A program made the translations under genes and the position numbers. Positions 601 to 57,183 of a stretch of 64,000 bases of DNA are shown here, piece by piece (position 1 is the stretch's first letter; each line of letters opens with the position of its first letter). The DNA comes from Nemertoderma westbladi (lineage: Eukaryota > Animalia > Xenacoelomorpha), in assembly GCA_032718475.1 (NCBI GenBank), contig JAUCBJ010008016.1, positions 1 through 64,000 of the forward strand, read 5' to 3'. The notes beneath the pieces were generated by a model. It saw only the letters and a program-made list of their open reading frames with translations, ran no database searches and was not told the DNA's origin.

Positions 601-3600
601 TTACGTTATGGAGTCCCTAGATGTTTGAAGGATTAGGGAGGTGGTCGTGGGAAGAGAATCTTGCCTTCCACAGTTTCCGGAGAGTCCTCCATTCCCTTCC
701 GGTAAACACAAACGACCGACTGGGTGATTGAGTCGCTGCATCCCGAATACAATTCCAGGTTTCCTCTTCGTCCTGGAATAGTGACGATAGAAACATCGCT
801 CAAAGTATATGACGGCGTTACAAAGCCGATTCCAGGAGCTATAGTGGTCCGTCGCTCCCTGCAGGAGAGGTGAGAGTCCCTGCGAGACGTCTGATGTTCC
901 AGAGCTCCAATCGCTCTCTCTGATCTTCATGAAGGATCCACTCGCGGTGGGGAGGTCCAGATCCACGGCGTCGTCCCTGGCAATATGTAATACCGACAGA
1001 TCTATCCCGGGTTCAAATAACTCCGATCCACCCGTCCGGGTTTTAGGTTTGACTTTCTCCGCTCCCTTGGCTGGTCTAATCTCAGTCGGAGTAAGATGGG
1101 GAGGCCATTCATCCTCCTTACTCAGGAAGTCGGGTTCACCTAACCGGTCTGTAGTATCTGTCAGTTCTTGAGGAGTTGCTCCTCTGGAAGCGATGTCAGT
1201 TGGATTAAACTTCTTGGGGCAATATCTCCATTGATCTACATTGGAGCTAATATCGTCATTATCTGAGGAGTATGGTGTTCCCTCAGTTGGGTCGTCTCCC
1301 TCACTAGTATCATCTTCCCATTCACACACCTGGCAGACGCGATCTTGAAGCAGTCTTTCTCTGAGCGTTCTTCGGGAAGGCCCAGTAAGGTACCAACCTA
1401 CTCTAGTTCTTACCACATAGGTCTGAAGTGGTTGCGGTTGAGCAGGTCGTTTCTCCAATGTCTCCAGCGCCTCATGCGCGTTTTGACCGATTAATATTTG
1501 TACTCCAGGATAATCAGTGTCGAATCTAGGGATGTTAAGTTGTTGGGCATGATCATCTTCGTCCCAATTATAAGGTTCCACTTGGGTGGTAGTGAAGTTC
1601 TTTATTGCCACCATTTTGACTGACCTTATACTGTATTCTCCTAGTTTATCCTGTGGAGTGGACAACTCACCTATATAATAGTCGGCAGCTACAGTAGAAT
1701 TCCAAACCTGCATGATCCCTGACATGTTTAGCTTGGTTCGGAACTTGGGTTGTCCAGCAAAGATGACTTCGGCTAGTTCTTTATCGATGAATGTTCCTGT
1801 GCTACCGGAGTCCAGGAGGGCGTTCACTATATAGCTCTTCTGAGGTCCGTGGACCCGTAACTGGACTACAGGAAATTCTCGGATTCCTATATTGGAAGTT
1901 GGCGCTTTCCAAGATGGTTGTTGATCAGAAGTAGTTAGGGTTAGGTCGCTGTCTGTGTCTTTCTCATGCATGAGTGCTCGATACACTGCGGTGGTGTTTA
2001 TTAGGTAACAGGATTCGTTTTGGTCGGAGAATTCGTCCGTATAGAATCCTTCCATTTCAGAACTTTGGTCGGAGAATTCGTCCGTATAGAATCCTTCCAT
2101 CTCAGAACTTTGGTCAGTGTCGTTCACATCACTGAATTGGACATGTAGTTCGGACTCACTTACCTGACTCGAGCTGTTTCGTTCGAATTCAGTGTGCAAC
2201 AAGATATGATGTTTTGCGCCGCACTTTGCACACCTTGCGTCGGAGTAACAGGTTCGCCGTTGGTGTCCTCGTCTGAGGCAATTATAACACAACCGCTTAT
2301 CCCACATGACTTCACGTCTATCCTCGAGTGATTTCCTCAGGAATTCATCACACACATTCAAACGGTGGGGCCCGTCGCACAGCACACATTTCGGCTTGAT
2401 GTTACTTACTTTAACCTGTGCTATGTGGTGCACACTTGTTCTTTCCTCGGGCTTTCTCACCTGAATTCTTTTAGGAGACGTAGGAGGGGTTTTTTGTACC
2501 GGTTCCCTTCTGTCATTGGGTCGAGACTTGGATTTACTTACCTGATCTTTAGGCATTTTATTGACATAATAAGATCTGTCAGTGTCTTTCCCGCTGTCCT
2601 CTCCTTGAGAAGTTTGGCTTTCACCGTCGTCGGTATAACATACTGGTGTTACCCTTCTCCTAGAAACGGGTTTCTCACTTACCTTACTTTCCGCTGTCTT
2701 CTCTCTGGACTGCTTTATGAGCTGTAATTTCACCTCGCTATCCAAGAATGACATGAGATCAGCCATGGTAGGGTCTCGTTGTTGTTGTTCCATCATATAT
2801 AACACCTTCTTGTCCCAGCGTGTACCTACTCCACCCTTGGGCAAAGTAGTTGCTAAGGCTCCTACAACCATAGAATTCTGGTATTCATGAGACTTACCTA
2901 ACCAATCTAGTTGTCTACAGATCTCCTGAATCTCATCGGAAAACTCTATAATCCCGCTGCTAAGAAACTTTCGGGGCGCCATTAATTTCGCATATAAATA
3001 CCTAGCTATGTTAGTCCTATTACCATACCTGATGTTTAGTGTATCCCAAACTTGTCTTAATCCATCTGGATGTCCAATAAATTTTAACGCCATTGACTTG
3101 GGAGGTCCTTCCAAACATTCGATGAGGAATCTAAGTTTCTCTCCGTTAGATAGTACAGAGTTCTGTATGTTATCTTTGTAATATTCATTAAAAGGTAACC
3201 ATTTCATCTCATCTCCATTGAACTTGACGATCTCTCCAACCTTTACCGCTTGTCGGGCTTCGGTTCTAGCCATTTGACGCGTAAAACTTTCTTGAGCCAT
3301 CGTATTATTGAATATAGAATTATCGGTATATAAATTTCTCGGATTATGATCAGGTCTATATGGAATATTATTATCAACAGGTTTATAATCACCCTGAATA
3401 GGGTTTACTATAGGAGTTTCTACTTCACTAGCAGTATAGATGCGTGTAGGCTCCACACCTTGCGCATGAGATACTTCAGACCTAACGGGTTGACACATTG
3501 TTACAGGGGGTGGTGGTATACCCTTTTGTAAATTGACTAATTTATCGCGTTCTAACGCGATACTTTGCTGCACCTTTTGCAACTCTAACCTACTTTCCCT

Positions 3601-4155
3601 TACTGTTCCCTTGAGCTGCTGAACAGTCTCTTCCATTTCCCGGACCTGCTGAGAGGAGCACAAACAGTGTTCCCTCAGCTGCTCGAGCAGGAGACCCATC
3701 TCCCGTCGTCCCTCAGCTACCCACTCAACCGCCGAAGCGGGAGTCGCCAACGTAGTAGCGGGCGAGCGAGAGACGACGGGCGATAAATTCTTGATATCTC
3801 GCTCGGCGTCCAGGACGGGTTCGGACTCGGGAACAGTCCTACTGGGCACAGGTAGTTTAGTACTGTACAAAGGGAATTTATAGGCAGGTTCTGGGAGTAC
3901 AGGTGTCTCTATCTTTCTTTCCGCTTCTACTGTTGCCATTGCCTCTGCCGCCTTTCTTTCCGCTTCTGCTGTTGCCATTGTCTCTGCCGCCTTTCTTTCC
4001 GCTTCTGCTGTTGCCATTGCCTCTGCCGCCTTTCTTTTCGCTTCTGCTGTTGCCATTGCCTCTGCCATCTTCCTTTCAAGACCCTGTCCAAGTCTAAGAC
4101 TCATTCTAACACCTTCCAAAAGACTATCTGACAGTGCCTGTTTTGTGTCAGACAT
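601..4155 (-). CDS. BEL/Pao Gag + aspartic protease polyprotein with RT/RNase H/integrase deleted (1184 aa)
   Basis: BEL Gag core (KFNGDEMKWLPF...EKLRFLIECLEGP...LNIRYGN), triple Cys/His knuckles (CVLCDGPH..C, CYNCLRRGH..C, CAKCGAKHH..LH), protease ALLDSGST. No YVDD or DDE motifs; only remnants of downstream pol (WRYCP..NPTDIASRG, HPVGRLCLPEG). Confidence 0.88.
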   Translation of the reverse strand: MSDTKQALSDSLLEGVRMSLRLGQGLERKMAEAMATAEAKRKAAEAMATAEAERKAAETMATAEAERKAAEAMATVEAERKIETPVLPEPAYKFPLYSTKLPVPSRTVPESEPVLDAERDIKNLSPVVSRSPATTLATPASAVEWVAEGRREMGLLLEQLREHCLCSSQQVREMEETVQQLKGTVRESRLELQKVQQSIALERDKLVNLQKGIPPPPVTMCQPVRSEVSHAQGVEPTRIYTASEVETPIVNPIQGDYKPVDNNIPYRPDHNPRNLYTDNSIFNNTMAQESFTRQMARTEARQAVKVGEIVKFNGDEMKWLPFNEYYKDNIQNSVLSNGEKLRFLIECLEGPPKSMALKFIGHPDGLRQVWDTLNIRYGNRTNIARYLYAKLMAPRKFLSSGIIEFSDEIQEICRQLDWLGKSHEYQNSMVVGALATTLPKGGVGTRWDKKVLYMMEQQQRDPTMADLMSFLDSEVKLQLIKQSREKTAESKVSEKPVSRRRVTPVCYTDDGESQTSQGEDSGKDTDRSYYVNKMPKDQVSKSKSRPNDRREPVQKTPPTSPKRIQVRKPEERTSVHHIAQVKVSNIKPKCVLCDGPHRLNVCDEFLRKSLEDRREVMWDKRLCYNCLRRGHQRRTCYSDARCAKCGAKHHILLHTEFERNSSSQVSESELHVQFSDVNDTDQSSEMEGFYTDEFSDQSSEMEGFYTDEFSDQNESCYLINTTAVYRALMHEKDTDSDLTLTTSDQQPSWKAPTSNIGIREFPVVQLRVHGPQKSYIVNALLDSGSTGTFIDKELAEVIFAGQPKFRTKLNMSGIMQVWNSTVAADYYIGELSTPQDKLGEYSIRSVKMVAIKNFTTTQVEPYNWDEDDHAQQLNIPRFDTDYPGVQILIGQNAHEALETLEKRPAQPQPLQTYVVRTRVGWYLTGPSRRTLRERLLQDRVCQVCEWEDDTSEGDDPTEGTPYSSDNDDISSNVDQWRYCPKKFNPTDIASRGATPQELTDTTDRLGEPDFLSKEDEWPPHLTPTEIRPAKGAEKVKPKTRTGGSELFEPGIDLSVLHIARDDAVDLDLPTASGSFMKIRESDWSSGTSDVSQGLSPLLQGATDHYSSWNRLCNAVIYFERCFYRHYSRTKRKPGIVFGMQRLNHPVGRLCLPEGNGGLSGNCGRQDSLPTTTSLILQTSRDSIT
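3915..4068 (-). repeat. 39-bp coding tandem repeat (AEAMATAEAERKA, about 4 copies) at the Gag N-terminus
   Basis: Visible in DNA (ttccgcttctgctgttgccattg) and in the translation; coiled-coil-like. Confidence 0.85.
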
Positions 4156-5499
4156 TTTTGTTTGTACAGTTGAATGCCTACTGCTATATTACAGTCTAAG
4201 CAAGTCTAGTAATTCAGTATTAACTGCTAGCCTAGTAATTAATTACCGATACTGCTACTCAGTGTAGCGTGATATATATATAATATATTAGAATACCGGT
4301 ATGCTTATGGTATATAGAAGTATTATTACAGACTAGGTTTTTCACAAAATACCGGTATATAATTTTAGCACAAAAATATATATAAATATATAATAGGCCT
4401 ATTGTGGATACCGGTATGCAGTTTACACTTATAGTATATATAAGTATAATTATTAACTAAAATTAATTACAGAATACCGGTATGATTTCAACCTAAAATT
4501 TATAGAAATAAATATAATAAGCCTATTGTAAATACTGGTATGTCAATTATTTTAGAATAATTGAATTTCTGAATTTTAAGGGTTACTTGGTTACTTTAAC
4601 TTACTTTATTACCGTTATTTAAGCAGTAGTCCAACTGATATTGAGACCTAATTGTTGTATGGCAGGCCTACTATTTATAAATCGTTTGAGTTGATTTATA
4701 ATATATATATACCCGTTGAAATGGGTTTTTTGTCAATATTTGAAATAAATGTTATTATTTCTGGGGAGTAATCACTACACAAAGCGGTGCGCTTTCAGTG
4801 AAGTGCTACTTATAGGACACTAAAACAAATAATTCTACTTTCTAAGTTACTTATCTACAAATTACTTACGATTCGGGTTGAGATTACAATCTCTAAATAA
4901 ACACAAAAATTTACAAAAAACACAAAATACGAATTTTTAGGGTAATTTTACAAGAAGTCTACAAACCAGCCTAACAAAGGGTTAGAATCTGGTTATTACA
5001 ACGGACAGGTTACTACGGTATTTGAAAATAATAAGTAGTAGTAAATATATTGCGCTGTCCAGATAGGAAAATACCACCGTCTGACGACCTATAGCCGTAT
5101 CGCTATAGGTACTACGTTATGTATCACGGAGTGTCCCTACCTAGAGATTAATTACCGCGGTCTACCAGAACCAACGTGCCTATTAACCACTTTACAACAC
5201 AGATATACTGCCTACACACTAATTACTTTCGGAAAGCACTGTACACTAAACCCTAAATTAGGTACGAGTACTTGTACAACATATAATCAGTAGTTAAATA
5301 TACTTGAACAGCTAAAAGAACCACGGCATCTGCTGGAGTGACCGGTGCACAAAATCACCAATCTTTACCTACGCCAAGCAGCCCGTGTAGTACCGGGGTT
5401 AATTTAACTATAGCGGTATGTATAACAAACACAATTATTGTAGGAACAAACTTGGGGAATGAATGTTGCGAATAATCGCATAAACTCTGAATAATAAAT

Positions 5500-6060: not shown

Positions 6061-6410
6061 TCTGTACAATCTGATCAGGCTTACACGCCTTCTGTTCAAT
6101 ACTGGCCTACAAATAAATAGAACTGACAGAAATAGGCCTAAGTAAAATCCCAATAAAAACCAGGCGTCCCCGATTAATTATTAAGACCTACTGGTATATA
6201 ATAATCAAAATCGAATAATACTGCTGTACCTGTACTGCTGTAGGTACCGGTCCGGGTGGTTAGGTAGTCAGGCCTACTGGGTACCGGTTGCCGGTACTTC
6301 AGCTTTATTGCCTACTGCAATACAGAAGCTATATCCGTTATTGTTCTTACCAGAACAATATTAAACTGTATTTAATGCCTACACTGCAATACAGACTAAA
6401 TATCCGTTAT

Positions 6411-7658
6411 TGTTAGCGCTTTCAGACCTTTGGCAGTTTAACCCGCCAAATTAGGATGTCTTCTAGATAATAAATCGCTTTTAGCCTCTGACAAGTATTT
6501 GATTCACTACACTAGTTGAAACCAATCTGTGCGCGATCATTCACCCGCTGGATATACCCGGGAGATTGACTTCGACAGCTTAATCTTATTGCTATGTAAG
6601 CCTAATGTATTATTCGACTGACAGTATTATATAATCTCTGACAATATTATTCACCTTCGGGGAATATTAACAGTTCCTTTAGGACGTGGCGCTCTATCTA
6701 TATAAACAGAGTTATGACTTAAACTACTCACAACGATATGGCTTAGTTACAATTCACATATATGGCGCATTCTTTAGGAAATGCTTCGTTATCAGTCTCA
6801 CTCATACACAACGCTGCACAATACTGCACACTAATCTGCCGATCTTCACTGATTTTAGTCACATATAAAAGGAACACAGACCGACTCATGTAGGGTCTAT
6901 CAAATAACATTAGATTCACTTCAAACCACTTTAACATAAGTCACAATCGTTATATGTAACCTGTCTCTCTTACCTTCGGTATATCAAGAATATTGGGGTT
7001 TCGGGGTCATTTCTCGTTATTCTAATATAATATTTCATCACCATATAATGAATAATCGACAGTAAATAGCAGTATAACGTTATAAAAGTATGCACGAAAA
7101 GACCAGCCAAGCATTGAGTAAGTTGTTAACCATTGAGTTACCCAGTTGAGTTAGGTTAGTAGGTAAGTATTGAGTTGCACAGTGATAACGGATATATGTC
7201 CTTATAATTAAGCCTACTAGTGTTAGGCTAAAAGCAGAACAGCACAAAATATTCCAAAGCCGTTCTTCCTGGCTCAAGACAGAATGATAACACTGCCCAT
7301 AATGCATTACGTGATTTCTCGGAAATTTCTGTACAAGAGCCGTAAAAACGCTCTGATTGGTTGACTGAACTAAGAGAAGCCGTAGAACAAAGAAAATCGA
7401 CACGTATGAATATCAGCTGTTAGCCGTCGTCATAGTAACTACTGTTCAAGAGTATCTAGCCCCTTTTGCGCCACGGAATTGCCATAGAATCATCAACTAT
7501 GCCTTCCACAGTACACATACGGAAGAAATAGCTCTTAGATCCTCTAAAAACACCGATACAGCAATAATACGGCCTCTTACGCCTATTAAACCAACTACAG
7601 AGTATTTTACGGGAAAAATAAGGAAAAATAACCGGGCAATTCAGCAAAAGCTTTTACA
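6411..7658 (-). repeat. 5' LTR of element A (1248 bp)
   Basis: Plus strand starts tgttagcgct and ends caaaagcttttaca, like the LTRs at 47533 and 57184. The left ~670 bp aligns to those LTRs (e.g. cagttcctttaggacgtggcgctctatcta). Confidence 0.88.
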
Positions 7659-21725: not shown

Positions 21726-21740
21726 CAACCAACCATCCCG

Positions 21741-24700: not shown

Positions 24701-24959
24701 TACAGCAATCAAATAAGTACAACGGTCCGAGATGCATTTCTTCATCTTCGAAGTTTGGCTAAAATTAAACGGTACCTCAGCAGACATGACCTTGAAATCT
24801 TAATTCACGCCTTTGTCACAAACAAACTCGACAGCAACAACTCATTATATTATGGATTACCCTCGAAGTCAATCAAAAAATTACAATATGTACAGAATTC
24901 CGCAGCGCGACTGCTAGAGGGCGTTAAGAAACAAGAGCACGTCACTCCAGTCCTTAAAC
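21741..24959 (+). pseudogene. LINE ORF2 (APE endonuclease + reverse transcriptase), frameshifted and interrupted
   Basis: YNARSI, AITEAWL, LGDFNFH, GHTLDLV, LSDH; LLDLSAAFDTVDH, LPQGSVLGP, YADDTQLY. Frameshifts near 22940 and at the long G run (~23528-23543). Cut by the BEL LTR at 24960. Confidence 0.9.
23031..23672 (+). repeat. 30-bp GC-rich minisatellite (~21 units, LGVPTGGATG-like) inside LINE ORF2
   Basis: Units such as ctgggcgttcctacggggggcgctactgga, lying between the EN and RT domains. Confidence 0.92.
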
Positions 24960-26568
24960 TGTTCGCGGTATTTCAACTTTCCATAACGCGAGTTGAATAT
25001 TTTTGTATTTATTTAAAATTGATTATTCCGATATTACTACTGGGTGCGGGACCATGGGTTTTGGGCACATTTAATAAACTGGGGGCGATTTATGGGCGAA
25101 CTTTGGGGCAACTTACAGGGTACGGGAATAATTTCATAGTTATAAGGGCCAGGGGGGATGGAAAATGCAAGCAGTATTCAGGTTAGCCTGAGTACTATTA
25201 GGCCCTGGCCAACTTCCTGCTGCCTGTAGGGGTGGATTTGGTAATGCGCCAGGCCTAAAGGACAAGGACAGCCCTTAGCGGTCCCTGGCCAACAGCAGCC
25301 ATTACGAGACTGAAAAGAACTCGGACCGCTGACTGCTTGTGTCAGGGATTTGCGACGGGCACCGACGGCCCCTTAGTAGCCAAGCCGTTCTGGTTCTCGA
25401 TGATCGAACCCCGGGGTTCGTGAGGGGTGGAGCGGACACGCGAACGGGTGGCCAACTTAAGACTGCCCCCTGACCTAAGCCGTACTGGTTCTCGATGACC
25501 GATCCCTTCGGGGTTCGCGAGGGGTGGGACGGACATGCGAAAGGGCTGGCCACAGGACGGGTTTGACGAGAACTGCCCTTAGCGGTCTCTGGTCAATGGC
25601 AGCTACTACGAGACTGAAAAGAACTCGGAACGCTGACTGCTTGTACTGGGATTTGCGACGGGACCCGACGACAGACCCCTTAGCCAAGCCGTACTGGTTC
25701 TTGATGATCGTTCCCTTCGGGGTTCGTGAGGGGTGGAACGGACACGCGACGGGGTCGAAAGACAAAGGACTAGACTCGACTAGACTCTACTGGCCTACCG
25801 ACTGTTCGGAGCAGTTTCTTGGCTGCCGAAGCGACTACGAGCCTGAAACGGACTCGGAAAGCCTAGGTGGTTGGGTTTCTGTGATGAACCGACGGACCCC
25901 TAGCCAAGCCGTTCTGGTTCTCGATGATCGAACCCTTCGGGGTTCGTGAGGGGTGGAACGGACACGCGAACGGGTCCACCGACACGACAGACTCCTAGCC
26001 AAGCCGTACTGGTTCTCGATGACCGAACCCTTCGGGGTTCGAGAGGGGTGGTACGGATACGCGACAGAGTCTACCGACTGGACCGACCCTTAGCCAAGCC
26101 GTGCTGGTTCTCGATGATCGTTCCCTTCGGGGTTCGTGAGGGGTGGAACGGACACGCGACAGGGTCGACCGACACCGACACTACGGCACTAAGACTGGGA
26201 CCGAGGGAAAATCTGGGGAACATTAGGTAGGCTAAAATTCTGAGCGAACAGTGGGTTATTAAATAATCTACCGTAGGGATTTATATTATCGTGTATAATT
26301 ATTGTGAATATTTGGTGTATATTGATTTGGGGAAGCCCAAAATTATTCTTAATCAGGTTTCAATGATGTTGAACAGGTTTCAACTATAGGAAGTTACATT
26401 AAAGAGTATATCCAACTAATGCAGCTTTTTATCAACCGCAAACTTGCATCTTAGAAAATATTCCCTCCCCACAATCAATATCCAGTGACTGGCCGGGGCT
26501 CGGTGGTCTGTTAAGTCACGTCTCCAGCATCGGCGTTTTTCCCCCCTGGTGTTGGGATAACGGCAACA
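24960..26568 (+). repeat. 5' LTR of the BEL element (1609 bp)
   Basis: Direct repeat of 37758-39365 and 41260-42868; TG...CA ends. Confidence 0.97.
25381..26160 (+). other. Six ~65-nt hairpin units (kink-turn-like internal loop, UUCG cap) in the LTR; also present in LTR2 and LTR3
   Basis: Consensus ccgtWc-tggttctc-GAT-GA-Y-cgaaccc-TTCG-gggttcg-N-GA-gggg-tg-gWacgg at ~25383, 25477, 25686, 25906, 26001 and 26096. Confidence 0.75.
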
Positions 26569-26696
26569 AAATTAAGAATAATTATATGGTTAATTTTGAC
26601 GGGGTGTCAAAATTAAGAATAATTAATGCGGTTAATTTTGACAGGGTGTCAAAATTAAGGATAATTACGGTCAACTTCAACTGGTGGAAGTTGAGA
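26569..26696 (+). promoter_or_regulatory. PBS-position region without TGG: three CAAAATTAAGRATAATT copies and perfect hairpins
   Basis: 26571-26583 (attaagaataatt) is the exact reverse complement of LTR 26341-26353. Hairpins TTAATTTTGAC-N5-GTCAAAATTAA occur twice, plus tcaacttc...gaagttga. Confidence 0.7.
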
Positions 26697-27052: not shown

Positions 27053-30000
27053 CAACAAATAACGTATCCGATACCGACGAGATGGATCACCACACAGACT
27101 CGGAAGCCGACGAGGTACCAAACGTCAAGAACATGACCCGTCGGTTAGGGGCTCTTAAAGGCGGAGTAACCCGAGCTTACCAACGGATGGAGAAACAACT
27201 CAAGGGAGTCAAAACCCCCCTCAATGAGGTACAAACTCAGCTTCAAAGTATCCGAAATATCCTACAGCGGTACGAAAGGATGATACAGGCGTACCAAGAG
27301 CTCGTCCCCCCCACCGATCAAGAAAACTACCCCAAGTTGGAAGAACACGTTGTACATCTAGATGGGTTCCGCAAACAACACCGGAGGACCCTCAGCCTTG
27401 TGAGAGGCTATGAGGAACAGTATTACAAGAGGGCTGACGCGGAATCAGTACGATCCTCCAGCATTAGGACAGCAGTACATCGAAAGAGAACGGGGTCCGC
27501 TAGAAATCAGCACTCCAGCGCTAGGAGCGAGATATCCGGCTCAGCGCGCAGTTCTTAAGAGGCGCCGCCACTCCGAGACCAACTGCGAGAACGGAAGGCA
27601 TTAGCCCTCAAAGCTCGGATGGAAGATGAGTATATTCAACTGCAAGCCGAGCAGGATGTATTAGCCGCCGAAACACAAAGGCGAGAGGCCGAACAAGCGG
27701 CCGAACGGCAGGCCGAACAACGCAAACAGGAGGCCGAACAACATAGACAAGAGGCCGAACGACAGGCCGAACTACGTGAACAGGAGGCCGAACAACGTAA
27801 ACGAGAGGCCGAACAACGTAAACGAGAGGACGAACGGCAGGCCGAACAACGCAAACAGGAGGCCGAACAACGCGGACGAGAGGCCGAACGAGAGATCGAA
27901 CAACGTAAATGGGAAGCGGAAATGCGTAAACAACACGCCGAGGCCCAAGCAATTCTCATCCACAAAAAGAATGCGGATATTGCAAAACTCGCAGAATACG
28001 AAGCCGCACTTATCGAACGAGATATTCAACTCTACGAGGACTGGGAAAGGGATATAGATCAGGAATATGAACCAATTCCGGTACCGGAGTTAGAAAAGTC
28101 ATTTACACCAACAGCGGCGAAACCTCCGAAACCCGAGATCCCGCCTACCAAACAGTCTACGCTATCGGCACAAGCCCCGGTGTTCCATCCCCCACCGGCT
28201 ACGCTAAAGAATGAGGAACCTTATTTCCCATCCAACACCACGACAGCGAGTGTACCCAAGTACGAGCCTGAAAAGGACTCGGAACGGGACGCCACTCCCC
28301 GATCGAACAACCCATTTACATCAACACCACAAACTCGTAGCCGCGTCATTATTAAAACCCCACCTATTATTGATCCATCAAGTATGGGAGTGAGTGCCAA
28401 TAACTATAACCCTCTGAGTCACTCTAGTTCAGACGACGTCAGCATCATCCGGGCGTTGGAGAACCGCCTTGCCATGCCTAAGATGGAGATCCGCACCTTC
28501 GAAGGAGATCCCGTCGATTACCTCAGATTCAAAAAACGGTTCTTTGCGCAGATTGGATCAACGGACATAGCCGAAGCACAGAAATTGGTATATTTATCGC
28601 AATACTTGGGTGACAAACCACGCAGAATTGTTGCATGTTTTGAAGGAGGTTCTCAGGAGGCATACTATGACGCATGGAAAACTCTAGACAAAAGATACGG
28701 AAATACCGGAACTATAATTAATAAAACTCTAGAGAGACTGATAAAGGACGCGGGATCACTAGGGGACCCACAGAACATACAGGAATTCTCCGACTCTATG
28801 AAAGATGCCTATTATACTCTGAAACCCTTAAATAAGGAGGACCAGGTGAACAACATTCTAAACCTCCGACAGATCGCACGGAAATTCCCCGGATGGCTAC
28901 AAAGTAAGTGGGCTTATAAATGTGTAGATCTCCGGCGCAGACATCCAGATCGAGATCCTAGCTTCCTCGAAATGTCGGCATTCCTGGACGATATCTCCGA
29001 AGCCATGAATGACTCGATGTTTTCAAAACAAAGTCTCGCAAAGTTGGACGGAATAGAGAGCAACTCCAGGAGTAAGATAATCCCTCCGAAACCGAGATTC
29101 CGCCCCCCACCGGTAAGTACGATGGCCATTACCATGGCCGAGGATTCCGACGACGAAGACTACGAGGAACCGACATCCGCTGAGGAATGGGCATGTTATC
29201 TCGCGAGTTGGGCACCCGAAAGGGAAGGCATCACAAATTCCCTGCTCTGTCTCTTCTGTGGGGAGAAACACAAAGTGGAATTCTGCAGAAAGTTTCAGTT
29301 TGCCGAACTCGTCCCACGCTTCAAGGCGATAATGAAACACCGAGGATGCTTCCGGTGTCTTGGAACAGGTCACTATGTTCGGGAGTGCGACCAAAGATCA
29401 TGCTGTGCTGTCTGTAACGACCAACGCCATCACACGCTCCTCCACATCCCCGCGAACTTCGATTTCACTACCCTCCCCTTTCGGATCGAAGCCAGGCGAA
29501 GAGGAGAAACAAACCACGTCTTCAAAGGAACCCGTACAACCCAACGGAGAGAAACCAACCCGTTTAAAATCTACACCGATACACCACAAGTAACCAATAT
29601 TTCGGCCACGATTAATCTTATAAATCGCCGCTACATGGTCTTCGCAAAGGTAATCCCAGTAAGGATCCAAGGAGTCGGCAAATCTTTGACGACACTCGCG
29701 TTCCTCGATAACGGGTCCGACGGAACCATCATCGACCGGGATTTCCTCGAGCAACTCGGCCTAGAATATGAACCTTGTAAACGGCCCATACAAACCATCA
29801 CCGATAACAAAGAAGTAGAGTCCGGGGAGGTGCAACTCCAGATGGAAGGAGTGATGAAGGGCTACGAAACGGCTAGGTTAACCATCAAGAACGCCTTGGT
29901 ACACACAGACCTTCGGGTGCGGTTCCGACAATCAGCCGAGTACGCCCCCCTCATACAATTGGACCGAGACGATGTAGACCTGAGGTGTCCGCAGTTGGAC

Positions 30001-33000
30001 GTGAACCGTATCACCCTACTGATCGGACTTGACACACCGGAACTACACATCCCCACCGGAGATATCGCTCGATCTATAAACCAGGATGATGGATTTTATG
30101 CGGAACGAACAATAATGGGACGGACCCTCTGCGGCATTAAGGAGGAAACTACAGACACCTATACCTACCTTCCTAAATGTCAGATTAAAGAAAATGTAAC
30201 CTCTGTGGGTTATTGCTCAGCTTCGGATCTTGACGAGGATTTGTTTCTGGAAACCGAGAAAACCCAACGAGAGATGACGAAATATTTTAATTTGGAGACC
30301 CAGGAGTTCGCGGAAAAGGACGAAAACCCATCCGAAGAGGACCAATATTGTATGGACGTTCTCGACCAGGCCACGTTTAAAGACGGACATTGGTGTTCAC
30401 CTATGTTGTGGAAGGACCCAAACAAACCAATGGCAAACAACGCCAGCATGGCACTTAGGCGACTTAAAGGGATTTTACGCCGGCTGAATGACCAACCCGA
30501 GATAAAGGAGAAGTATAATACCGTAATCCAAGGATATCTCGATGATGGATTAGCAGAAATGGTACCACGGAACGAACTGCAAGGCGGTAAAAGAACATAT
30601 TATCTCCCGACCCACTATGTAGTAGAAGCCCGCAAAGGTGGGAAATTCCGAGTGGTAAATGATGCTGCCGCTATGTACCAGGGCGAATCCCTAAACAGTC
30701 AACTTTATACGGGACCCAACATATATAGCACACTCATCGGCGTATTGATCAGGTTCAGGGAAAACCGGGTAGCATTCACCTCTGACATCAAGGCCATGTT
30801 TCATCAAGTTCGTACATTACCAAGAGACTCGGACTGTCTACGTATCCTATGGACGGATAAAACGCTTACTCAACAGGAGATTAGCCAACTCACGATAAAG
30901 GACGTAGACGTAATGCGTATGGTCGTCAGGATCTTCGGCGCTAAGGACTCGCCGGTAGCATGCAGTGACATGCTAAAGAGGACGGCAACTATGTGCGAAA
31001 ACGAGTTCCCTCCTACCGTCATAGAAACCATTCGACGATGCTTCTACGTGGACGACGGATGCGCCGGCGCGGATAATGTAGATGAGGCGTATCGGCTAGC
31101 AATGGGGATGGTAGAATGTCTAAAGAAAGGAGGGTTTCCACTCGTGAAGTTCAGATCCCACGACAAAACACTTATGGAAAAGTTTCCGGAGGACATCCGG
31201 CTGGAAAATAACAAGATGTATTCGGAGGAGGTGGAACATCGTGTACTCGGGATTGAATGGGACATAGAATCAGATGAATTCATCTTCAAATATAAACCCC
31301 TACCCAAGCCTATGACAAAAAGGGGATGTTTGTCGATAAAAAGTGCAATCTTCGACCCACTAAATTTCATATCTCCAGTAACCTTGGCCAGAATGAACCT
31401 GATTAAGGAAATGTGGATAGAAGGACTGGGATGGGACGAAGAGCTTCCCCCACACCTTAGCGTCAAATGGAGAAAATGGACGGAGCAGCTCGAACACCTA
31501 CATCTTATGCGGATACCTAGACCGTTTTTCCTCGATAAACTGCCCACCGATATCTTCCAGCTCCACACCTTTTCGGATGCTTCGAATACAGGAATCGGCG
31601 TAGTAACCTTCTTACGGAGACTAAGTAACGATGGAAACGGCGATACAAGCTTCTTATTCTCCAAAGCAAAGACAGTATCCGGGGAATTCGTAGCAACGAT
31701 TCCGAGGCTCGAGCTACAAGCTGCAGTTTGGGCAGTAAGACAGAATCGCATGGCCATGCGGAACCTACGGATCCCCATAGAATCTCAACACTTCTGGGTA
31801 GATTCAAGTATAGTTCTCTATTATCTCCACTCTCCATCACGGCGTCACACCACATTTGTTGCAAACCGAGCCACAGAGATTAAACAGTGTACCGGCCGAG
31901 AACAGTGGCATCACGTGAACGGGAAGGAAAACCCAGCGGACTTATCAAGCCGAGGCGCCACCCCAAAACAACTCGGTAAAAGTAAACTCTGGCTTACAGG
32001 CCCGGAATTCCTACGGCAGCCACAGTTAACATGGAGTACCCGATTCGACCCCGAACTCGACAGCGGAAAATACTCCGAGGACGATAAAGAGATCCGTAAA
32101 ATCCATCGAAGCAACGCGGTGGAAATTTATAGTTGCCTGACTGAGCCTGCAAAGGACTCGGGCAGGCACTATAACGTCGCGACGATTACTCAACTAGCGG
32201 CGTCCTTACATCGGTTGATCGAGCGAACTTCATCCATGAGACGGCTCGTCCACCACGTTGTAACCCTTCGCAACTTCCTACGGTGGAAAAACAACAAACC
32301 GATAGTTCAACGGAATATACAAGAACTTATTATCGCGGAGAAGTGTATTGTTAGATATGTCCAGAAAGAAAGTTTCCCCGATGAATGGGAACAACTTAGT
32401 GCGGGCAAAACGTTGAAACCGGACAGCCCAGTCTACCAACTGAGACCAATGATGGGAAAGGACGGACTGATCCGACTAAATACCCGGATGGCAAACGCCC
32501 CGGTCGAATATGAGGTCAAATACCCGGCGCTTCTGCCCGGAACGTCGACACTAGCTAAGCTATTAATTCTACAATGTCACGAGGACAACCACCACGCAGG
32601 ACAGAATTGGATTATAGCTAATATAAGACAAAGATATTGGATCACCCACATCCAGCCACTGATTCGGAAAGTGTTGAAACGTTGCTTCACCTGCAGACGT
32701 TACCTAGCGCCACCAATCACACAAAAGATGGCCGACTTACCAGCCACCCATCTACAAGCGGATTCCCCGCCATTCTACGTCACCGGAGTGGACTGTTTCG
32801 GACCGTTCACGGTTATTGAACGACGATCCAACATCAAATGCTGGGGAGCCATCTTCACCTGCCTAAGATCTAGGGCAATTTACCTAGATATCGTGGTAAA
32901 TCTGACACAACACGCATTCATCAACGCCCTGCGTCGGTTCGTGGCGAACAACGGGACATGCCGCCACATGTATTCCGATAATGGTACAAACTTTGTGGGA

Positions 33001-33750
33001 GGAGAAAGAGAACTTAGAGAGGCGATCGAGGGATGGTTTACCGATAACACCGCATCCCAAGTCTGGAAGGAACACCAGATACAGTGGCACTTCCAGACCC
33101 CCTTAGCACCCCATACGAGCGGGGTATGGGAGAAACTGATCGACCTAGTGAAACGATCCATGCGCGTCGCTCTAGGCGATACCCGGGTAACCCATGACAC
33201 CCTCCGCACAACATTCTGCGAGATCACGGCTACCCTGAACAACCGACCCATTGTTCCTATCCGCGACGACCCCACAGACCTGGAACCCCTCACTCCTAAC
33301 CACTTACTGGGGAGACCCAAAACCCACCTCCTCCCGGAAACCATGTTCCCGGATCCCAACGAGATCGCGAAACATACAAACTGGAAAAAGGCCCAAGCAT
33401 TGGCAGCGCATTGGTGGAGAATTTGGGCCCAGGAGTACCTCATAACCCTCCGGACCAGGAGGAAATGGAACAACACCTACCGGAACGTCGCAGTTGGCGA
33501 CATGGTACTAGTTAAAGAAGATCTCAAAGACCGCGTTCACTGGCCTGTGGCGCGGGTCGTGACCATACACCCAAGCAAAGACGGACTTGCGAGGACTGTG
33601 ACGATACGAACGAAAGCGGGCCACTACCAACGCCCCATCCAGAAGCTGTGCCTTCTTGAAGGCAATGACAGTGGTGATTCTACGAGAGGTGATAAGTTCC
33701 CTACTCAAGATCCTGCTGCGGACATTGGTGACAATTATAAATGCGTTTAA
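27049..33750 (+). CDS. BEL/Pao Gag-Pol polyprotein (Gag, PR, RT, RNase H, IN) with one in-frame TAA at 27556-27558
   Basis: ORFs 27049-27558 and 27619-33750 share a frame and the gap is open. Motifs: FEGDPVDY, triple Zn knuckle, FLDNGS, FYVDD, FSDAS/IPRLELQAA/WVDS, HHCC, GVDCFGP/YSDNGTNF/GVWE. Confidence 0.95.
27680..27910 (+). repeat. Coding EAEQR/QAE heptad-like repeats in Gag
   Basis: Repeated gaggccgaacaacg; charged helical translation. Confidence 0.85.
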
Positions 33751-34991: not shown

Positions 34992-37592
34992 ATGGACCCA
35001 AATCGCCAAATTATCGGCGAATTACGTAACACGATAGATCTACTGGAATATTCGCAACCTGGATCCCCTGACTTTGATACAAATTGGAACACTCTGCTAA
35101 ATGAGAACGTACGAGACGTTAAATTCACCGGGCGAGAGGGACCGGATTCTAAGAATCTACGAGCCCTCCGGTTAGCCGATGCTAGTACGAGACTGAAAAG
35201 AACTCGGAACGCAAAGGCAACCGGAGGGGACGATTCGTCGTTTTGGGAAACGTTCCGGCAGAGCGTCTACAGATCCCGATGTTTGATCTACGACAACGAG
35301 GGAAACGCGACGCCCACCTCGAAAGCGATTACGTTGGCGAGATGTCAAAGTTTCGTCGACGACAAGAGTACGTACCTCGCCCACTGGGGAAACCTGTCGG
35401 AGTGTACGGCGACGCTTCGAGAGGAACGCATATCGATTATCCAGAACCGAGACGACTACCAGGAAAAGTATGGGGCGAAAGAATACGGTCGATCCTTAGT
35501 CGTCGTCCTCGGAACCCTGGACGGTTTGGTACTGGTGTGCCGAATATTCCCGACACCCAGACAGGAAGTGCGGGCAGCCGGAGCGATCTGGTTGCTGCCT
35601 CCGGAAATCCAAAAGATCCTCTTCGACTTCGACGTCATTAAAATCGGGTCGGATATCAAGGCAGACGTCCGGAACGACTACGCGAACGCTCCCGCAGGAA
35701 GAAACCGACGAAACGACCTCAACGCACTTAGCCATTGCATCGACACTCAAACGCTGCTAGCCTGGTTGCGATTCGCCGAGTTCATGCGAGGATTCCAAGA
35801 AGTGAGACCGACGAAATCCGGGATCGGCTACCTCGCTGTGCTCAACGGCGGTATCGACTTCAAACCCCAGAAATTCCGGGACTATAATAAAATATACGGC
35901 GGATACCCGGGATTAGAGATAAAGAGCGAGCGGGAGGGTCGATGGAAGGACGTCGATCGGAAGTGGACGATACACCAAAGGTGGGAGAATCCCGATCGAC
36001 GGAGCTATATCTACGTCGTTATGGAATGTTACACCGTCGCTAAGTTTATCTGCAAGACTCTCGATAACCTTATTACGGCGGCCCCCCTTTCCTTCGTCGA
36101 CTACGACTGGAACGAGGTTATAAACCACGCGTTTAAAGCGGTCGAGAACATTACACCGGGAGAATCGAAAACGCCCGCCGTTATCAACTCCTGGGACGAG
36201 AGCGGACCTTACGATATCCCTACGATTACCGAGCTTCTCGGTGCGGAGGAGCCTCTGATCTCTTCGGAAGGGGAAGAGATATGGCTAAACGAGGGTGTTC
36301 TTCTCTCCACCCCGAAGCGACAACTCGAGCCGGAGGCCGCGTATGGACCGGCCGCCAAACGAGTTGCCTCGGCCGAACCGATAAAGAGAGCAGGCGTCTA
36401 CACCCCACGCGGCTCCGGTAGCCCCGCGAGAGAGGTAGCCACTACAGCTGCATTGAGCGACTTCGGCGACATATGCCAACGGTTATCCCCGTATCCTTTC
36501 CCGGGTGGCGAAGATTGGTCGTCGGAGATTCCGAGTACCAGCCACCAACGGACCCGCTCAGCGATACTGGTCGAGGAGGGCCCCAGCGATGCGCCGACCC
36601 CCGACGATCTCCTCGGTATCCCTCCGTCGAAAACCCCGGCACCTCTTCGCCGACCAGCGGTGGCTACTACACCCGCCGTTCCTCAGGACCCTATGCGACT
36701 AACCCGTTGGTACGCCGAGCAAACTGAATGGATCCACCGCCAGAAACGGTCGTCCGAGTTGAGACCAGCGGGACACAAAGAGGGTTATCGGAGCGAGAAC
36801 ATACTACGCAAAAGCCTAGCATTCCGCGGGCTACCGACCACCGAGAATATTCCGAAGAGCGACCGACGACTCGAATACTACGTCGGCGTCCCGATTCCGA
36901 TATTCCCCGGTCGAGAAATGCAGTTGGAGGTATGCGGCGACTGCGGCTCGGAGCAGTGCCCACGCGGCAGAAGGAATCGGGTTACCGATTCTTGCCTCCA
37001 GCTCCTCGGGATACTCTACTGCCCATACTGCGCGATATCGGGCCACGACGTTTCGGTCTGTCCGATCCTTTATAACCTCTGCACCACGTGCGGTTTCCGT
37101 GGACATTCCGCTAGCCCCCGCTGCTATATCAAATGTCCAACCAAAGACGTTACCGCTATGGGCAATATGGTCATGTTTGAGACATACGCAAACAGCCACT
37201 TAAAGACCAAGTTTCGGAGAAACGCTCGGAATATCGCGCAGGAGATGGCGTGCGGATATTTCTCCTTCCCGGAACGCCTCCACACGTCGGCCACGCTACC
37301 TTTCCATTACGTGGATCTGCTACTGAGCGCCGGATTATTCGGCCCATTCGAAGTCATTAGACGATTATATTCGTATAAAGAAGAGTTCGGTGACGGAGAG
37401 TGGTTTCTCGAGGCTCGCAACTCCGAGTTGGAAAGACGAACCGACATGATCCCGATGCCTTCGAAAGGAAGAGCCGCCAGGAGACAAGCCGAAGCGTTAC
37501 TCACGATGGACGTTGACGCTCCTCTACCAGCCATAGCGATCGATGAGAGTCGACGGGCGAAGAGACGAAAGGCGTATCAGAAAAAGAAATAG
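34992..37592 (+). CDS. BEL element ORF3: DEDDy (WRN/EXD2/Mut-7-like) 3'-5' exonuclease-like domain + low-complexity linker + CCHC-type zinc knuckles (866 aa)
   Basis: ExoI-like LIYDNEG, ExoII-like LPPEIQKILFDFDVIKIGSDIKADVR, CIDTQTL, SGIGYLA, ExoIII-like W...YIYVVMEC. C-terminal CPYCAISGH..C and CTTCGFRGH..C. No signal peptide or TM segment seen. Confidence 0.7.
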   Translation: MDPNRQIIGELRNTIDLLEYSQPGSPDFDTNWNTLLNENVRDVKFTGREGPDSKNLRALRLADASTRLKRTRNAKATGGDDSSFWETFRQSVYRSRCLIYDNEGNATPTSKAITLARCQSFVDDKSTYLAHWGNLSECTATLREERISIIQNRDDYQEKYGAKEYGRSLVVVLGTLDGLVLVCRIFPTPRQEVRAAGAIWLLPPEIQKILFDFDVIKIGSDIKADVRNDYANAPAGRNRRNDLNALSHCIDTQTLLAWLRFAEFMRGFQEVRPTKSGIGYLAVLNGGIDFKPQKFRDYNKIYGGYPGLEIKSEREGRWKDVDRKWTIHQRWENPDRRSYIYVVMECYTVAKFICKTLDNLITAAPLSFVDYDWNEVINHAFKAVENITPGESKTPAVINSWDESGPYDIPTITELLGAEEPLISSEGEEIWLNEGVLLSTPKRQLEPEAAYGPAAKRVASAEPIKRAGVYTPRGSGSPAREVATTAALSDFGDICQRLSPYPFPGGEDWSSEIPSTSHQRTRSAILVEEGPSDAPTPDDLLGIPPSKTPAPLRRPAVATTPAVPQDPMRLTRWYAEQTEWIHRQKRSSELRPAGHKEGYRSENILRKSLAFRGLPTTENIPKSDRRLEYYVGVPIPIFPGREMQLEVCGDCGSEQCPRGRRNRVTDSCLQLLGILYCPYCAISGHDVSVCPILYNLCTTCGFRGHSASPRCYIKCPTKDVTAMGNMVMFETYANSHLKTKFRRNARNIAQEMACGYFSFPERLHTSATLPFHYVDLLLSAGLFGPFEVIRRLYSYKEEFGDGEWFLEARNSELERRTDMIPMPSKGRAARRQAEALLTMDVDAPLPAIAIDESRRAKRRKAYQKKK

Positions 37593-37757
37593 TGGATTGG
37601 GATATTCCAGGAACATTTATCGAATATTTATTTTTATACAAACTCTAGGCCGAATTAATTAAAAACTATGCAATATTAAATTTGGGTTTTTTATATTGGG
37701 AATGACCTACGCAAACTCAATCGACCGACAGACTTCACGAAGGTCATTGGGGGGGAC

Positions 37758-39365
37758 TGTTCGCGGTATTTCAACTTTCCATAACGCGAGTTGAATATTT
37801 TTGTATTTATTTAAAATTGATTATTCCGATATTACTACTGGGTGCGGGACCATGGGTTTTGGGCACATTTAATAAACTGGGGGCGATTTATGGGCGAACT
37901 TTGGGGCAACTTACAGGGTACGGGAATAATTTCATAGTTATAAGGGCCAGGGGGGATGGAAAATGCAAGCAGTATTCAGGTTAGCCTGAGTACTATTAGG
38001 CCCTGGCCAACTTCCTGCTGCCTGTAGGGGTGGATTTGGTAATGCGCCAGGCCTAAAGGACAAGGACAGCCCTTAGCGGTCCCTGGCCAACAGCAGCCAT
38101 TACGAGACTGAAAAGAACTCGGACCGCTGACTGCTTGTGTCAGGGATTTGCGACGGGCACCGACGGCCCCTTAGTAGCCAAGCCGTTCTGGTTCTCGATG
38201 ATCGAACCCCGGGGTTCGTGAGGGGTGGAGCGGACACGCGAACGGGTGGCCAACTTAAGACTGCCCCCTGACCTAAGCCGTACGGTTCTCGATGACCGAT
38301 CCCTTCGGGGTTCGCGAGGGGTGGGACGGACATGCGAAAGGGCTGGCCACAGGACGGGTTTGACGAGAACTGCCCTTAGCGGTCTCTGGTCAACGGCAGC
38401 TACTACGAGACTGAAAAGAACTCGGAACGCTGACTGCTTGTACTGGGATTTGCGACGGGACCCGACGACAGACCCCTTAGCCAAGCCGTACTGGTTCTCG
38501 ATGATCGTTCCCTTCGGGGTTCGTGAGGGGTGGAACGGACACGCGACGGGGTCGAAAGACAAAGGACTAGACTCGACTAGACTCTACTGGCCTACCGACT
38601 GTTCGGAGCAGTTTCTTGGCTGCCGAAGCGACTACGAGCCTGAAACGGACTCGGAAAGCCTAGGTGGTTGGGTTTCTGTGATGAACCGACGGACCCCTAG
38701 CCAAGCCGTTCTGGTTCTCGATGATCGAACCCTTCGGGGTTCGTGAGAGGTGGAACGGACACGCGAACGGGTCCACCGACACGACAGACTCCTAGCCAAG
38801 CCGTACTGGTTCTCGATGACCGAACCCTTCGGGGTTCGAGAGGGGTGGTACGGATACGCGACAGAGTCTACCGACTGGACCGACCCTTAGCCAAGCCGTG
38901 CTGGTTCTCGATGATCGTTCCCTTCGGGGTTCGTGAGGGGTGGAACGGACACGCGACAGGGTCGACCGACACCGACACTACGGCACTAAGACTGGGACCG
39001 AGGGAAAATCTGGGGAACATTAGGTAGGCTAAAATTCTGAGCGAACAGTGGGTTATTAAATAATCTACCGTAGGGATTTATATTATCGTGTATAATTATT
39101 GTGAATATTTGGTGTATATTGATTTGGGGAAGCCCAAAATTATTCTTAATCAGGTTTCAATGATGTTGAACAGGTTTCAACTATAGGAAGTTACATTAAA
39201 GAGTATATCCAACTAATGCAGCTTTTTATCAACCGCAAACTTGCATCTTAGAAAATATTCCCTCCCCACAATCAATATCCGGTGACTGGCCGGGGCTCGG
39301 TGGTCTGTTAAGTCACGTCTCCAGCATCGGCGTTTTTCCCCCCTGGTGTTGGGATAACGGCAACA
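37758..39365 (+). repeat. 3' LTR of the BEL element (1608 bp)
   Basis: Preceded by the PPT and followed by TSD TAAAC. Confidence 0.97.
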
Positions 39366-47532: not shown

Positions 47533-48713
47533 TGTTCGCGCTTTTGAAGACCTTTAGCAGTTTAACCTGCCAAAATTTATATGTCTTTTAGTTAATTAAC
47601 ACACCTTTAGCATACGACAATATTTTATGCTAATAAACAAAACATTAGCCGAAGCCAGCCCATGCGCGATCATTCACCCGATGGATCTACACCCGGGAGG
47701 CTGAATTCGGATGCTTAGATTTTATTATTGCAGTGTAAGGTTGCAGTGTAAGCCTACTGTATTATTCGATTGATCGCTAATATGTAATTTCTGACAGATA
47801 TTATTAACTTTCGGGAAATATTAACAGTTCCTTTAGGACGTGGCGCTCTATCTATTTAAACAGAGCTAGGACTTATACTAAACGCAACGATAAGGCTTAT
47901 GATTAAAGTATAAGTCGCATTCTTTAGGAAATGCTTTGTTACCAGTCACATCACACTCACAATCATGCACACTATTCTGCCGACCGTCAGTATATTTGAT
48001 CACACATAAAGAGAACAGCAATTGACTCAGGTAGTGTCTACTAAATAACATTAGATTCAATACACACCACATTGATATAAATCGCAATTGTTATATATAG
48101 CCGGTCTCTCTAACCTGTAGTGTATCAAGAAATTGGGAAATTTGGGTGATTTATCAATATTCTCCAAATGACAATATTTCATCAACAAATCGATACAATT
48201 AATAACTGACGGTAAATAGCAGTACAAACAATATGATTAGTGCAATTAAATTAAGTGAGGTAACACTGCCGGTAACAGTTATACTTTCTATAATCTAAGC
48301 AGTTTTACTAGAGTTGTTCCAAAAGCCGGTGTTATGGCGAAAATGGGAACACAACAACAGAAACATGTGACTACTGCTCTATATGAAGATACCAAAAACT
48401 CTTATTCCACGAAGCCCCGTTCAACACAGAGGATGAGCATAGAGATAGGAAATTCAGTTCAGTAGCGCTGGGATAGGTCGAAATCAACGCCCACGCAAAT
48501 TCTATTGGCCGACACGGGCAGCAAGGCTAAGGCAACCTCTCTAAGCTAGTTGGCCGATTAAACTGAGCCCAGATATCTCCGTATAGCACATCAGCCAATA
48601 AGCTGGTAGCTTGCACTATTTTAGTTATAAATCCCTTTGAGAGTATTCTAGCGACTGGGGGGGAACTGGCCAGCAAAGGCAAACGTATCAGTTATCCCAC
48701 AAAAGCTTTTACA
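47533..48713 (-). repeat. 3' LTR of element B
   Basis: tgttcgcg...cttttaca; direct repeat of 57184-58364. Confidence 0.96.
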
Positions 48714-54997: not shown

Positions 54998-57183
54998 TTC
55001 GCTTTATACAGTTGGATGCCTACTGCTATATATACAGTTAAAGCAAGTCTAGTAATTCAGTATCACTGCTAGCCTAATAATTAATTACCGATACTGCTAC
55101 TCAATGTAGCGTGATATATATATATAATATATTAGAATACCGGTATGCTTATAGTATATATAAGTATTATTACAGACTAGATTTGTCACAGAGTACCGGT
55201 ATATAAATTTAGCACAAATATATATATAAATATATAATAGGCCTATCGTGGATACCAGTATACAGCTTACACTTATAATATATATAAAGTATAATTATGA
55301 ACTAAAATTAATTACAGAGTACCGGTATGATTTCAGCTCAAATTTATAGAAATAAATATAATAAGCCTATGGTAAGTACCGGTATGTCAATTATTTTTAG
55401 AATAATTGAATTCCTGAATATTTTAGGGTTACTTAGTTACTTTAACTTACTTTGTTACCGTTATTTAAGCAGTAGTCCAACTGATATTGAGACCTAGTTG
55501 TTGTATGGCAGGCCTACTATTTATAAATCGTTTGAGTTGATTTATAATAGATATATACCCGTTTAAAAGGGGTTTTGTTAATATTTGAAATAAATGTTAT
55601 TATTTCTGGGGGAGTCACTACACAGAAGCTGTGCGCTCTCCGTGAAGTGCTATTTATTGGACACTAAAACTGATAATTCTACTTCCTAAGTTACTTATCT
55701 ACAAATTACTTACGATACGGGTGAGATTAAATCTCTAGTTAAACACAACAAAAATATTACGTACGAATTTTTAGGGTAATTTTACAGGAAGTCTACAAAC
55801 CAGCCTAACAAAGGGTTAGATTTCTGGTTATTACAACGGACAGGGTACTACAGTATTTGAAATAATAAGTAGTAGTAAATATATTGTACTGTCCAGATAG
55901 GAAAATACCACCGCCTGACGACCTATAACCGTATCGCTATAGGTACTACGTTATGTATCACGGATTGTTCCTACCCAGAAGCTAATAGAGCTAACGAATG
56001 TGCCTATCAACCACTTTACAACACAAATACACTGCCTACACTAATTACTTCGGAAAGCACTGTACACTAAACCCTAAATTAGGTACAAGTACCGGTATAA
56101 CAAATAATCAGTAGTTAAATATACTTGAACAGTTAAAAGAACCACGGCATCTGCTGGAGTGACCGAAGCACAAAATCTCCAGTCTTTACCTACGCCGAGC
56201 AGCCCTGATGTAGTACCGGGGTTAGTTTAACTATAACGGTATGTATAACAAGCACAATTACTGTAGGAATAAACTTGGGGACATGAATGTTGCGAATAAT
56301 CGCATAAACTCTGAATAATAAATATTACGCTACCCGTACAGAATACTCAAACAAATACAAACCAAACGCTGGCAGACTACTATTAAGCCTAAACAAACTA
56401 CAGTATGTGCAGATTCTGAAACTGTTAGTTAGTATGCGTTCTAACACGGTAGTACGACTTACTCTTTAAGAGGGGATTGACCTTACCGCATATGGCTGCC
56501 CCAACTTACTAACGGCACTTTATCAGACCAACTCTACACACGCAGCAATCCCTTCAGACCTAAAAATAGCTAGACAACAATCCAGCCTACAAATATTTGA
56601 GTAATAACTATTACGGTACCTGAACAGACCACACAAACAAACACAGGCCAAAACACTGGCAGACTACGATCAAGCCTAAATAAACTACAGTATATGCAGA
56701 CTCTGAAACTGTTAGTTAGTATGCGTTCTAACACGGTAGTACGACTTATTCTTTAAGAGGGGATTGACCTTACCGCATATGGCTGCCCCAACTTACTAAC
56801 GGCACTTTATCAGACAAACTCTACACACGCCGTAATCTCTCCAAACTCAACAACAGTCAGACAGCAGCTCAGCCTACAATTATCTGAATAATCTGAGCAG
56901 GGTCACACGCCTTCTGCTCAATATTAGCCTACTAGTAAATAAAACCGACAGAAATAAGTAGAATCTCAAATAAAAATCAGGGCGGCCGTTCCCTGATTAA
57001 GTACCAAGACCTACCGGTATACAACAATCAAAATCGAATAATACTAATGTACTTGTACAGCAGTACCGGTACCGGTGATGACAGTTAGGCCTACTGACCT
57101 ACAGAAGCACCGGTTCAGTTTTACCAGTCACTACGGTATTTTGCAACCTTATTGCCTACTGCAATAAGATTATAAACTGTTAC

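Follow-up and report, generated by a model that had tools for sequence, protein, structure and literature searches.

The window analysed here, a stretch of 64,000 nucleotides from Nemertoderma westbladi (contig JAUCBJ010008016.1, positions 1 to 64,000 of the forward strand), harbours three LTR retrotransposons of the BEL/Pao type, one on the plus strand (C) and two on the minus strand (A and B), and raises the question of which RNA primes their minus-strand DNA synthesis. According to ICTV, Belpaoviridae carry an 18-nt primer-binding site (PBS) for tRNA-Arg or tRNA-Gly, LTRs of 0.2–1.2 kb and genomes of 4.2–10 kb (PMC8742986). Such an 18-nt tRNA-complementary PBS was not found in C, A and B, none of which has a TGG within the first 8 nt past the 5' LTR, in agreement with the initial annotation of this DNA. 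ARAGORN and Rfam searches of the 64-kb window returned nothing. The initial annotation had further proposed that the sequence at the PBS position pairs with a segment of the same element's LTR, from which the element would prime itself, and that this segment marks where the transcript begins.

The three elements and their LTR partners

Element C (24960-39365, plus strand), delimited by self-comparison and Pfam, spans 14.4 kb. Its 5' LTR (24960..26568; 1609 nt, TG..CA, with 95-bp repeats in the U3 part) differs at 5–6 positions from the 3' LTR (37758..39365), which follows a polypurine tract (37749..37756). The target duplication is TAAAC, and the insertion site is the ORF of a LINE (endonuclease and RT domains) that is split into 21726-24959 and 42869 onward, its frame continuing past the target duplication. 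A second copy of the 3' LTR (41260-42868) belongs to a 3503-bp tandem duplication (36060-43065; 99.9 % identity) comprising part of ORF2, the 3' LTR and ~200 bp of flank, which may be genuine or an artefact of assembly. The open gag-pol frame (27559..33750; 2063 aa) encodes DUF1759, zinc knuckles, a protease, YVDD, Peptidase_A17 (4e-37), integrase and DUF5641, with an integrase zinc domain and RNase H-region motifs also recognized by Pfam and motif searches; the closest homologues share 35–41 % identity and the identical Pfam set. A 169-aa ORF in the leader (27049-27558) lies in the same frame, separated from gag-pol by one stop codon. An extra ORF of 866 aa, ORF2, located after pol (34992..37592) had no match in Pfam, PDB or a homologue search; its nearest Atlas clusters, DNA_pol_A_exo1/EXD1-like (0.83 and 0.75, a lead only), hint weakly at a DEDDy-type exonuclease fold plus a Cys/His region. 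For rotifer LTR elements, DEDDy-type ORF3s are reported in the accessible part of PMC5408684.

On the minus strand, element B (58364-47533) is bounded by LTRs identical across 1181 nt (5' LTR, 57184..58364; 3' LTR, 47533..48713) and by the target duplication CAAAT. The ends of the 1248-nt 5' LTR of element A (6411..7658) were assigned by homology to B, because the 3' LTR of A falls outside the window. Both elements possess a gag-protease frame with a remnant of the RNase H region (A, 601..4188; B, 51864..54602) and no RT or integrase match, and they share 82 % amino-acid identity. Since their likeness to C is confined to gag, protease and a small stretch of the RNase H region, A and B are likely non-autonomous and would borrow RT in trans. 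In sequencing run X1, 682 contigs were at least 80 % alike to B (48720-58400) versus 8 for the C stretch, and the A/B group seems far more numerous than C; an RT donor for it was not found. Contigs of one sequencing run yielded neither transcription starts nor a GT-AG joint within the LTR of C or of B, which is uninformative. Two tandem arrays are also present in the window: a 12-kb array of 56/51-bp units (7659-19801; ~220 copies) starts at the first base beyond the 5' LTR of A, and a 49-bp array (63086-63998; 18.6 copies) extends past the window end.

C resembles Belpaoviridae (Semotivirus) in domain set and order, TG..CA LTRs, the 5-bp target duplication and the polypurine tract, but differs in lacking a tRNA PBS, in its LTR of 1.6 kb and in its span of 14.4 kb. 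Direct TG..CA LTRs, a target duplication and a polypurine tract are present in C and B, with only one LTR of A in the window. The protein evidence comprises Peptidase_A17, DUF5641, DUF1759, the integrase zinc domain and YVDD in C, and only DUF1759, a protease motif and the RNase H remnant in A and B. Judged by these predicted proteins, and notwithstanding the absent tRNA PBS, all three are BEL/Pao elements.

In C, the sequence at the PBS position (26571..26583, 2 nt beyond the LTR) is complementary over 13 bp to a partner within the LTR (26341..26353), the predicted self-primer, the 3' end of which lies 215 nt from the LTR end. In A, the 11 nt directly after the LTR (6400..6410) pair with 7185..7195, and in B (57171..57183 with 57923..57934) a 9-bp core is formed between 57183-57175 and 57931-57923, with an extension past a bulge. 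All coordinates and sequences of the three pairings were thus reproduced, as was the claim that the partners of A and B occupy an equivalent LTR position: they lie in alignable sequence, 774 and 739 nt from the LTR end. The claimed co-variation was likewise found, 3 of the first 9 pairs being changed on both sides between A and B and still Watson-Crick. While the pairing is present in all three elements, A and B form one related group, so that the window contains two independent lineages rather than three. The paired stretches begin with AT, AT and GT.

For the window elements, the pairing was scored as the best match beginning 0–4 nt past the LTR. Dinucleotide shuffles of the LTR matched the observed length in 0 of 3000 (C), 2 of 3000 (A) and 138 of 3000 (B) cases; five-offset blocks along the internal region equalled it in 2 of 2231 (C, both being PBS copies), 7 of 1275 (A) and 62 of 1687 (B). 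Taken alone, the B pairing is statistically marginal. Six cross pairs, combining the PBS of one element with the LTR of another, reached 8 bp at maximum. These controls bear on the reading that the complementarity arose as a by-product at the DNA level, through local inverted duplication, an integrase end motif or A+T-rich chance, and plays no part in RNA. In favour of it, the sequences are short and rich in A+T, the leaders of C and A carry duplicated PBS-like motifs, and B is marginal; the shuffles, together with the permutations described below, oppose this reading.

The leader of C contains 2.4 copies of a 41–42-bp unit (26567..26667) that repeats the PBS to three copies (the further ones at 26612-26624, exact, and 26654-26666, with one change) and includes a local inverted repeat. 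In A, 6414-6331 holds two PBS copies (the second at 6341-6331), each after an LTR-end-like AACA. These repeats are possibly slips during second strand transfer.

Folding of C with PBS copy 1 paired gave a structure at most 0.3 kcal/mol from the best fold; a local hairpin competes, the pairing probability being 0.20 for copy 1 and 0.62 for copy 3. In A and B the duplex is not favoured, its probability being close to 0 when 800 nt are folded. A candidate poly(A) signal in C (ATTAAA, 26398..26403; consensus match only) is situated 44 nt past the partner; in A and B a poly(A) hexamer is absent within 130 nt downstream. The TATA-like motif common to A and B (TATAA/TATAG) sits 11–12 nt upstream of the partner, which would put the transcription start downstream of it. 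A perfect splice-donor consensus is read on the plus strand at 7169-7158, opposite to the transcript strand of A and just downstream of its partner.

Pairing across a predicted splice junction in relatives

Relatives were collected by scanning metagenome contigs with an alignment around the RT-RNase H of C, which yielded at least 597 pattern matches, at least 546 of them confirmed; the best 80, representing 57 families, were kept. A scan of viral contigs gave 43 pattern matches and 0 confirmed ones. Since the relatives were selected by likeness to C, in a set without a tRNA-primed BEL control, they do not speak for all BEL/Pao. Among the best 80, 31 loci with long-range direct repeats were inspected, 14 of them with an LTR end seemingly fixed by two copies, resulting in 10 families after L053 (family of L061) as well as L009, L039 and L065 (repeat not ending on CA) had been left out.

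Self-pairing of at least 10 bp was recovered in all 10 LTR-fixed families (of the best 80 relatives), two of which (L007 and L038) required looser splice rules. In most of them the form of the pairing differs from that in the window. A contiguous (unsplit) partner amounts to only 5–7 bp in 9 of these 10 families, and the unsplit match, at 5–10 bp, was abandoned as a model for the relatives in favour of a junction test. The short partner mostly starts straight after a pyrimidine tract plus AG, and GTAAG donors occur upstream in the LTRs. An interpretation of the YAG before the partner as an initiator was dropped, as donors were found upstream exactly where the pairing resumes. Once the GTAAG..YAG junction is joined, 7 of the 10 families (best 80 relatives) pair over 11–15 bp versus 6–7 bp unspliced, with 4–9 bp before and 6–7 bp after the junction and intervals of 72–168 nt. 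None of 520 shuffled leaders reached 10 bp; 4 of 156 foreign leaders did, all within four families with similar PBS. The remaining families are L007 (10 bp with a weak donor; TGG 1 nt past the LTR), L038 (11 bp under a looser acceptor rule) and L060 (10 bp, unsplit). Of the loci left out, L009 pairs over 11 bp (split) and L065 over 12 bp (unsplit), and L039 has no trusted match. A splice junction was also searched for as partner in the LTRs of C, A and B, and none was found; on this evidence, they are the unsplit form of the pairing.

In a loose scan of the best 80 relatives, junction matches of at least 10 bp were found at 26 of 60 loci versus 192 of 3502 cross-family pairs, and unsplit matches showed no excess (11 of 60 own versus 490 of 3502 foreign). 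Matches judged spurious were those of L010, L022 and L061 (unsplit) and of L039, L057 and L065 (split). A tighter test, demanding a PBS starting with GT or AT after ACA and a partner within 300 nt, was applied to the 24 further families in which gag is preceded by at least 600 nt. Fifteen of these 24 families (best 80 relatives) were positive, 11 split and 4 unsplit, whereas 300 permutations gave 0.15 positives on average and never more than 2; the rules had been fixed after viewing 16 loci, some within the 24-family set, and the test is therefore not blind. Among the nine families missed, looser rules retrieved L056 (10 bp) and L028 (15 bp), L046 and L055 pair over 9 bp unsplit, and five are without any match; two of these five have family members with matches, and L070 begins inside the presumed intron.

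One locus, L080, is ~90 % identical to L077/L079 and lacks exactly their 168-nt interval, the 11-bp pairing being kept; it is the only joined form for the 26 junction entries among the best 80 loci, and the joined form stands directly behind U3 and the polypurine tract. Whether the contig derives from DNA or RNA, the exact loss of the interval points to splicing. In the split families the complement is absent from the DNA and arises only across canonical splice signals. A partner that comes into being only upon joining most likely pairs as RNA, and this disposes of the reading as a DNA artefact; with the exact interval loss in L080 also against it, this reading is largely refuted and scarcely credible.

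Shared features were tallied for 32 relatives selected from the earlier matches (best 80 loci). TGG occurs within the first 8 nt in only one of the 32, the paired stretch begins with GT in 29 and with AT in two (L038 being miscalled in this tally), and a poly(A) hexamer lies at most 130 nt downstream of the partner in 24 as well as in C, the latter two tallies being raw counts without control. A TATA-like motif 25–35 nt upstream of the partner was found in only 3 of the 32. The 3' end of the partner is 43–249 nt from the LTR end in these relatives, a range that includes C but not A and B, which as outliers would require an R+U5 of 740–775 nt. PBS sequences differ across more than 25 families, each matching its own LTR. 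Four families (L070, L020, L075 and L076) agree in the 7 nt that follow the junction and in the PBS core, which resembles the tRNA T-loop motif.

A FastTree phylogeny of RT-RNase H (81 rows: 22 split, 10 unsplit, 49 unlabelled) interleaves split and unsplit forms, with at least 5 changes needed. This count alone fits gain or loss; the nesting of L080 within the L077 family suggests that the unsplit form arises by intron loss. C sits on a long branch whose placement lacks support (best identity 41 %), and no sub-clade name is therefore claimed.

Source of the primer

The pairing, its position 0–5 nt past the LTR, its co-variation and, in the relatives, its dependence on GT..AG joining are observed. 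Many distant relatives have preserved the pairing although its letters differ, in most cases over a probable intron, and the group thus probably begins its copying with a piece of its own RNA. The proposal of tRNA-independent priming by the element's own RNA is thereby strongly supported, at the level of sequence, by the pairing and its co-variation across relatives. That the primer is encoded by the element, by whatever route, is very probable on these comparisons, and C, A and B have a good probability of priming minus-strand synthesis with the 5' end of their own RNA rather than with a tRNA.

By analogy to Tf1, the transcript would begin within the 5' LTR, either at the partner or upstream of it, and the 5' part of the RNA would fold onto the PBS. 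The element's RNase H would then cut at the 3' end of the duplex, after the conserved ..AC or ..AT, leaving a 3'-OH directed into U5; pairing brings the 3' end of the partner next to the LTR end. The strong-stop DNA would subsequently be transferred to the 3' R. For split families, the intron near the cap would be spliced in the 5' copy to form the primer, and the 3' copy would remain mostly unspliced and pass the intron on. Introns near the cap splice more readily. Were the 3' copy spliced now and then, unsplit elements would descend from it, among them L080 and perhaps also C, A and B. During plus-strand synthesis the primer serves as template for the PBS, and regeneration of the PBS in this manner would explain why the two co-vary.

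Priming could instead fall to a host tRNA fragment or another small RNA, and the LTR-PBS duplex would then hide the site as a structural or regulatory switch. Such a primer would be in line with the tRNA-Arg or tRNA-Gly given for the family by ICTV (PMC8742986) and with half-tRNA priming, which works without TGG according to the accessible part of PMC6317226. The TGG of L007, 1 nt past the LTR, also fits. The GTTCGAA core common to the PBS of several families resembles the tRNA T-loop motif. However, with more than 25 families having differing PBS that each track their own LTR, including the three double changes between A and B, the host primer would have to change each time, which makes this explanation highly improbable.

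The main rival is a primer that is likewise encoded by the element but derives from another copy and is cut after the partner; its source could be the 3' LTR end of the same RNA, a second RNA packaged with it or a separate short transcript of the LTR. The sequence does not distinguish which LTR copy pairs, and a primer of this kind would ease the case of A and B, whose TATA-like motif is too near the partner; the position of the joined form in L080, immediately after U3 and the polypurine tract, would agree with it as well. A spliced 3' copy of the same RNA templating U3 would, however, lose the intron in one round, yet 22 of the 32 labelled tree rows keep it (best 80). Supply in trans avoids this loss but requires two RNA forms, and Tf1, Tf2 and Tj1 use the 5' end (accessible parts of PMC7175516 and PMC4600332). 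A primer from another copy is thus unlikely, and priming by the 5' end is preferred. The near TATA-like motif of A and B could be reconciled with the latter by a second downstream start as in Tf2, for which the accessible part of PMC5341516 describes an additional downstream start yielding RNA unable to prime.

Known self-priming systems and implications

In Tf1, the PBS is bound by the first 11 nt of the RNA, which RNase H releases by a cut between bases 11 and 12 (PMC7175516, accessible part). Tf1 and Tf2 of Schizosaccharomyces pombe, Tj1 of S. japonicus and, more widely, Tf1/sushi and Tcn1 (Ty3/gypsy) resemble the present elements in having no tRNA site and a PBS complementary to ~11 nt of their own LTR, the primer of Tf1, Tf2 and Tj1 being freed by an RNase H cut (accessible parts of PMC7175516, PMC4600332 and PMC5341516). 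In contrast to the unsplit first 11 nt of Tf1, the primer proposed here is predicted from sequence, the partner spans a likely intron in many relatives, and that of A and B is 740–775 nt away from the LTR end. The likeness would be one of mechanism only, as the polyprotein is that of BEL/Pao and not of a Ty3/gypsy chromovirus of the Tf1/sushi lineage. The accessible part of PMC6317226 lists self-priming for Tf1/sushi, Tcn1 and TAR only. In the TAR lineage of plant Ty1/copia elements (Houba, Osr-1), self-priming was likewise predicted from sequence, from an LTR complement of at least 10 bp that begins 0–5 bp past the 5' LTR; an intron-split partner is not mentioned for TAR in that part of the source. 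An LTR complement of at least 10 bp situated 0–5 nt past the 5' LTR is present in C and A, and B has 9 bp ungapped. Fungal GalEa copia elements and bivalve TRIMs also lack a tRNA site, and short inverted repeats were proposed as a substitute, with both arms internal and 12–41 bp apart (PMC6934838, accessible part); in C, A and B, by contrast, the arm at the PBS position pairs with one inside the LTR.

A BEL/Pao survey (PMC3118150) does not mention primer, PBS, tRNA or priming in its main text, and PBS, tRNA and priming are unmentioned in the Sinbad paper (PMC554778). BEL self-priming is absent from the accessible parts of PMC3601003, PMC4600332, PMC8233318, PMC8220671, PMC13524379, PMC6934838, PMC4558846, PMC5443660 and PMC5408684. 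A full-text search of openly accessible main texts found no report of self-priming or of a splice-built primer in BEL/Pao.

With somewhat less confidence than for the window elements, one may propose from the comparison of relatives that a wide BEL/Pao branch in animals has dropped tRNA priming: in most of its families the host spliceosome would build the primer, splicing would license replication and the unspliced 3' copy would transmit the intron, with C, A and B as unsplit members. If true, the split form would represent a primer assembled by pre-mRNA splicing, of which the full-text search revealed no report. Such elements may then escape control by 3' tRNA fragments. For annotation, BEL elements seemingly without a PBS should be inspected for an LTR self-complement. 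Self-priming in this branch would, if true, overturn the standard tRNA-primed account of BEL/Pao replication and make BEL/Pao the third LTR superfamily with self-priming.
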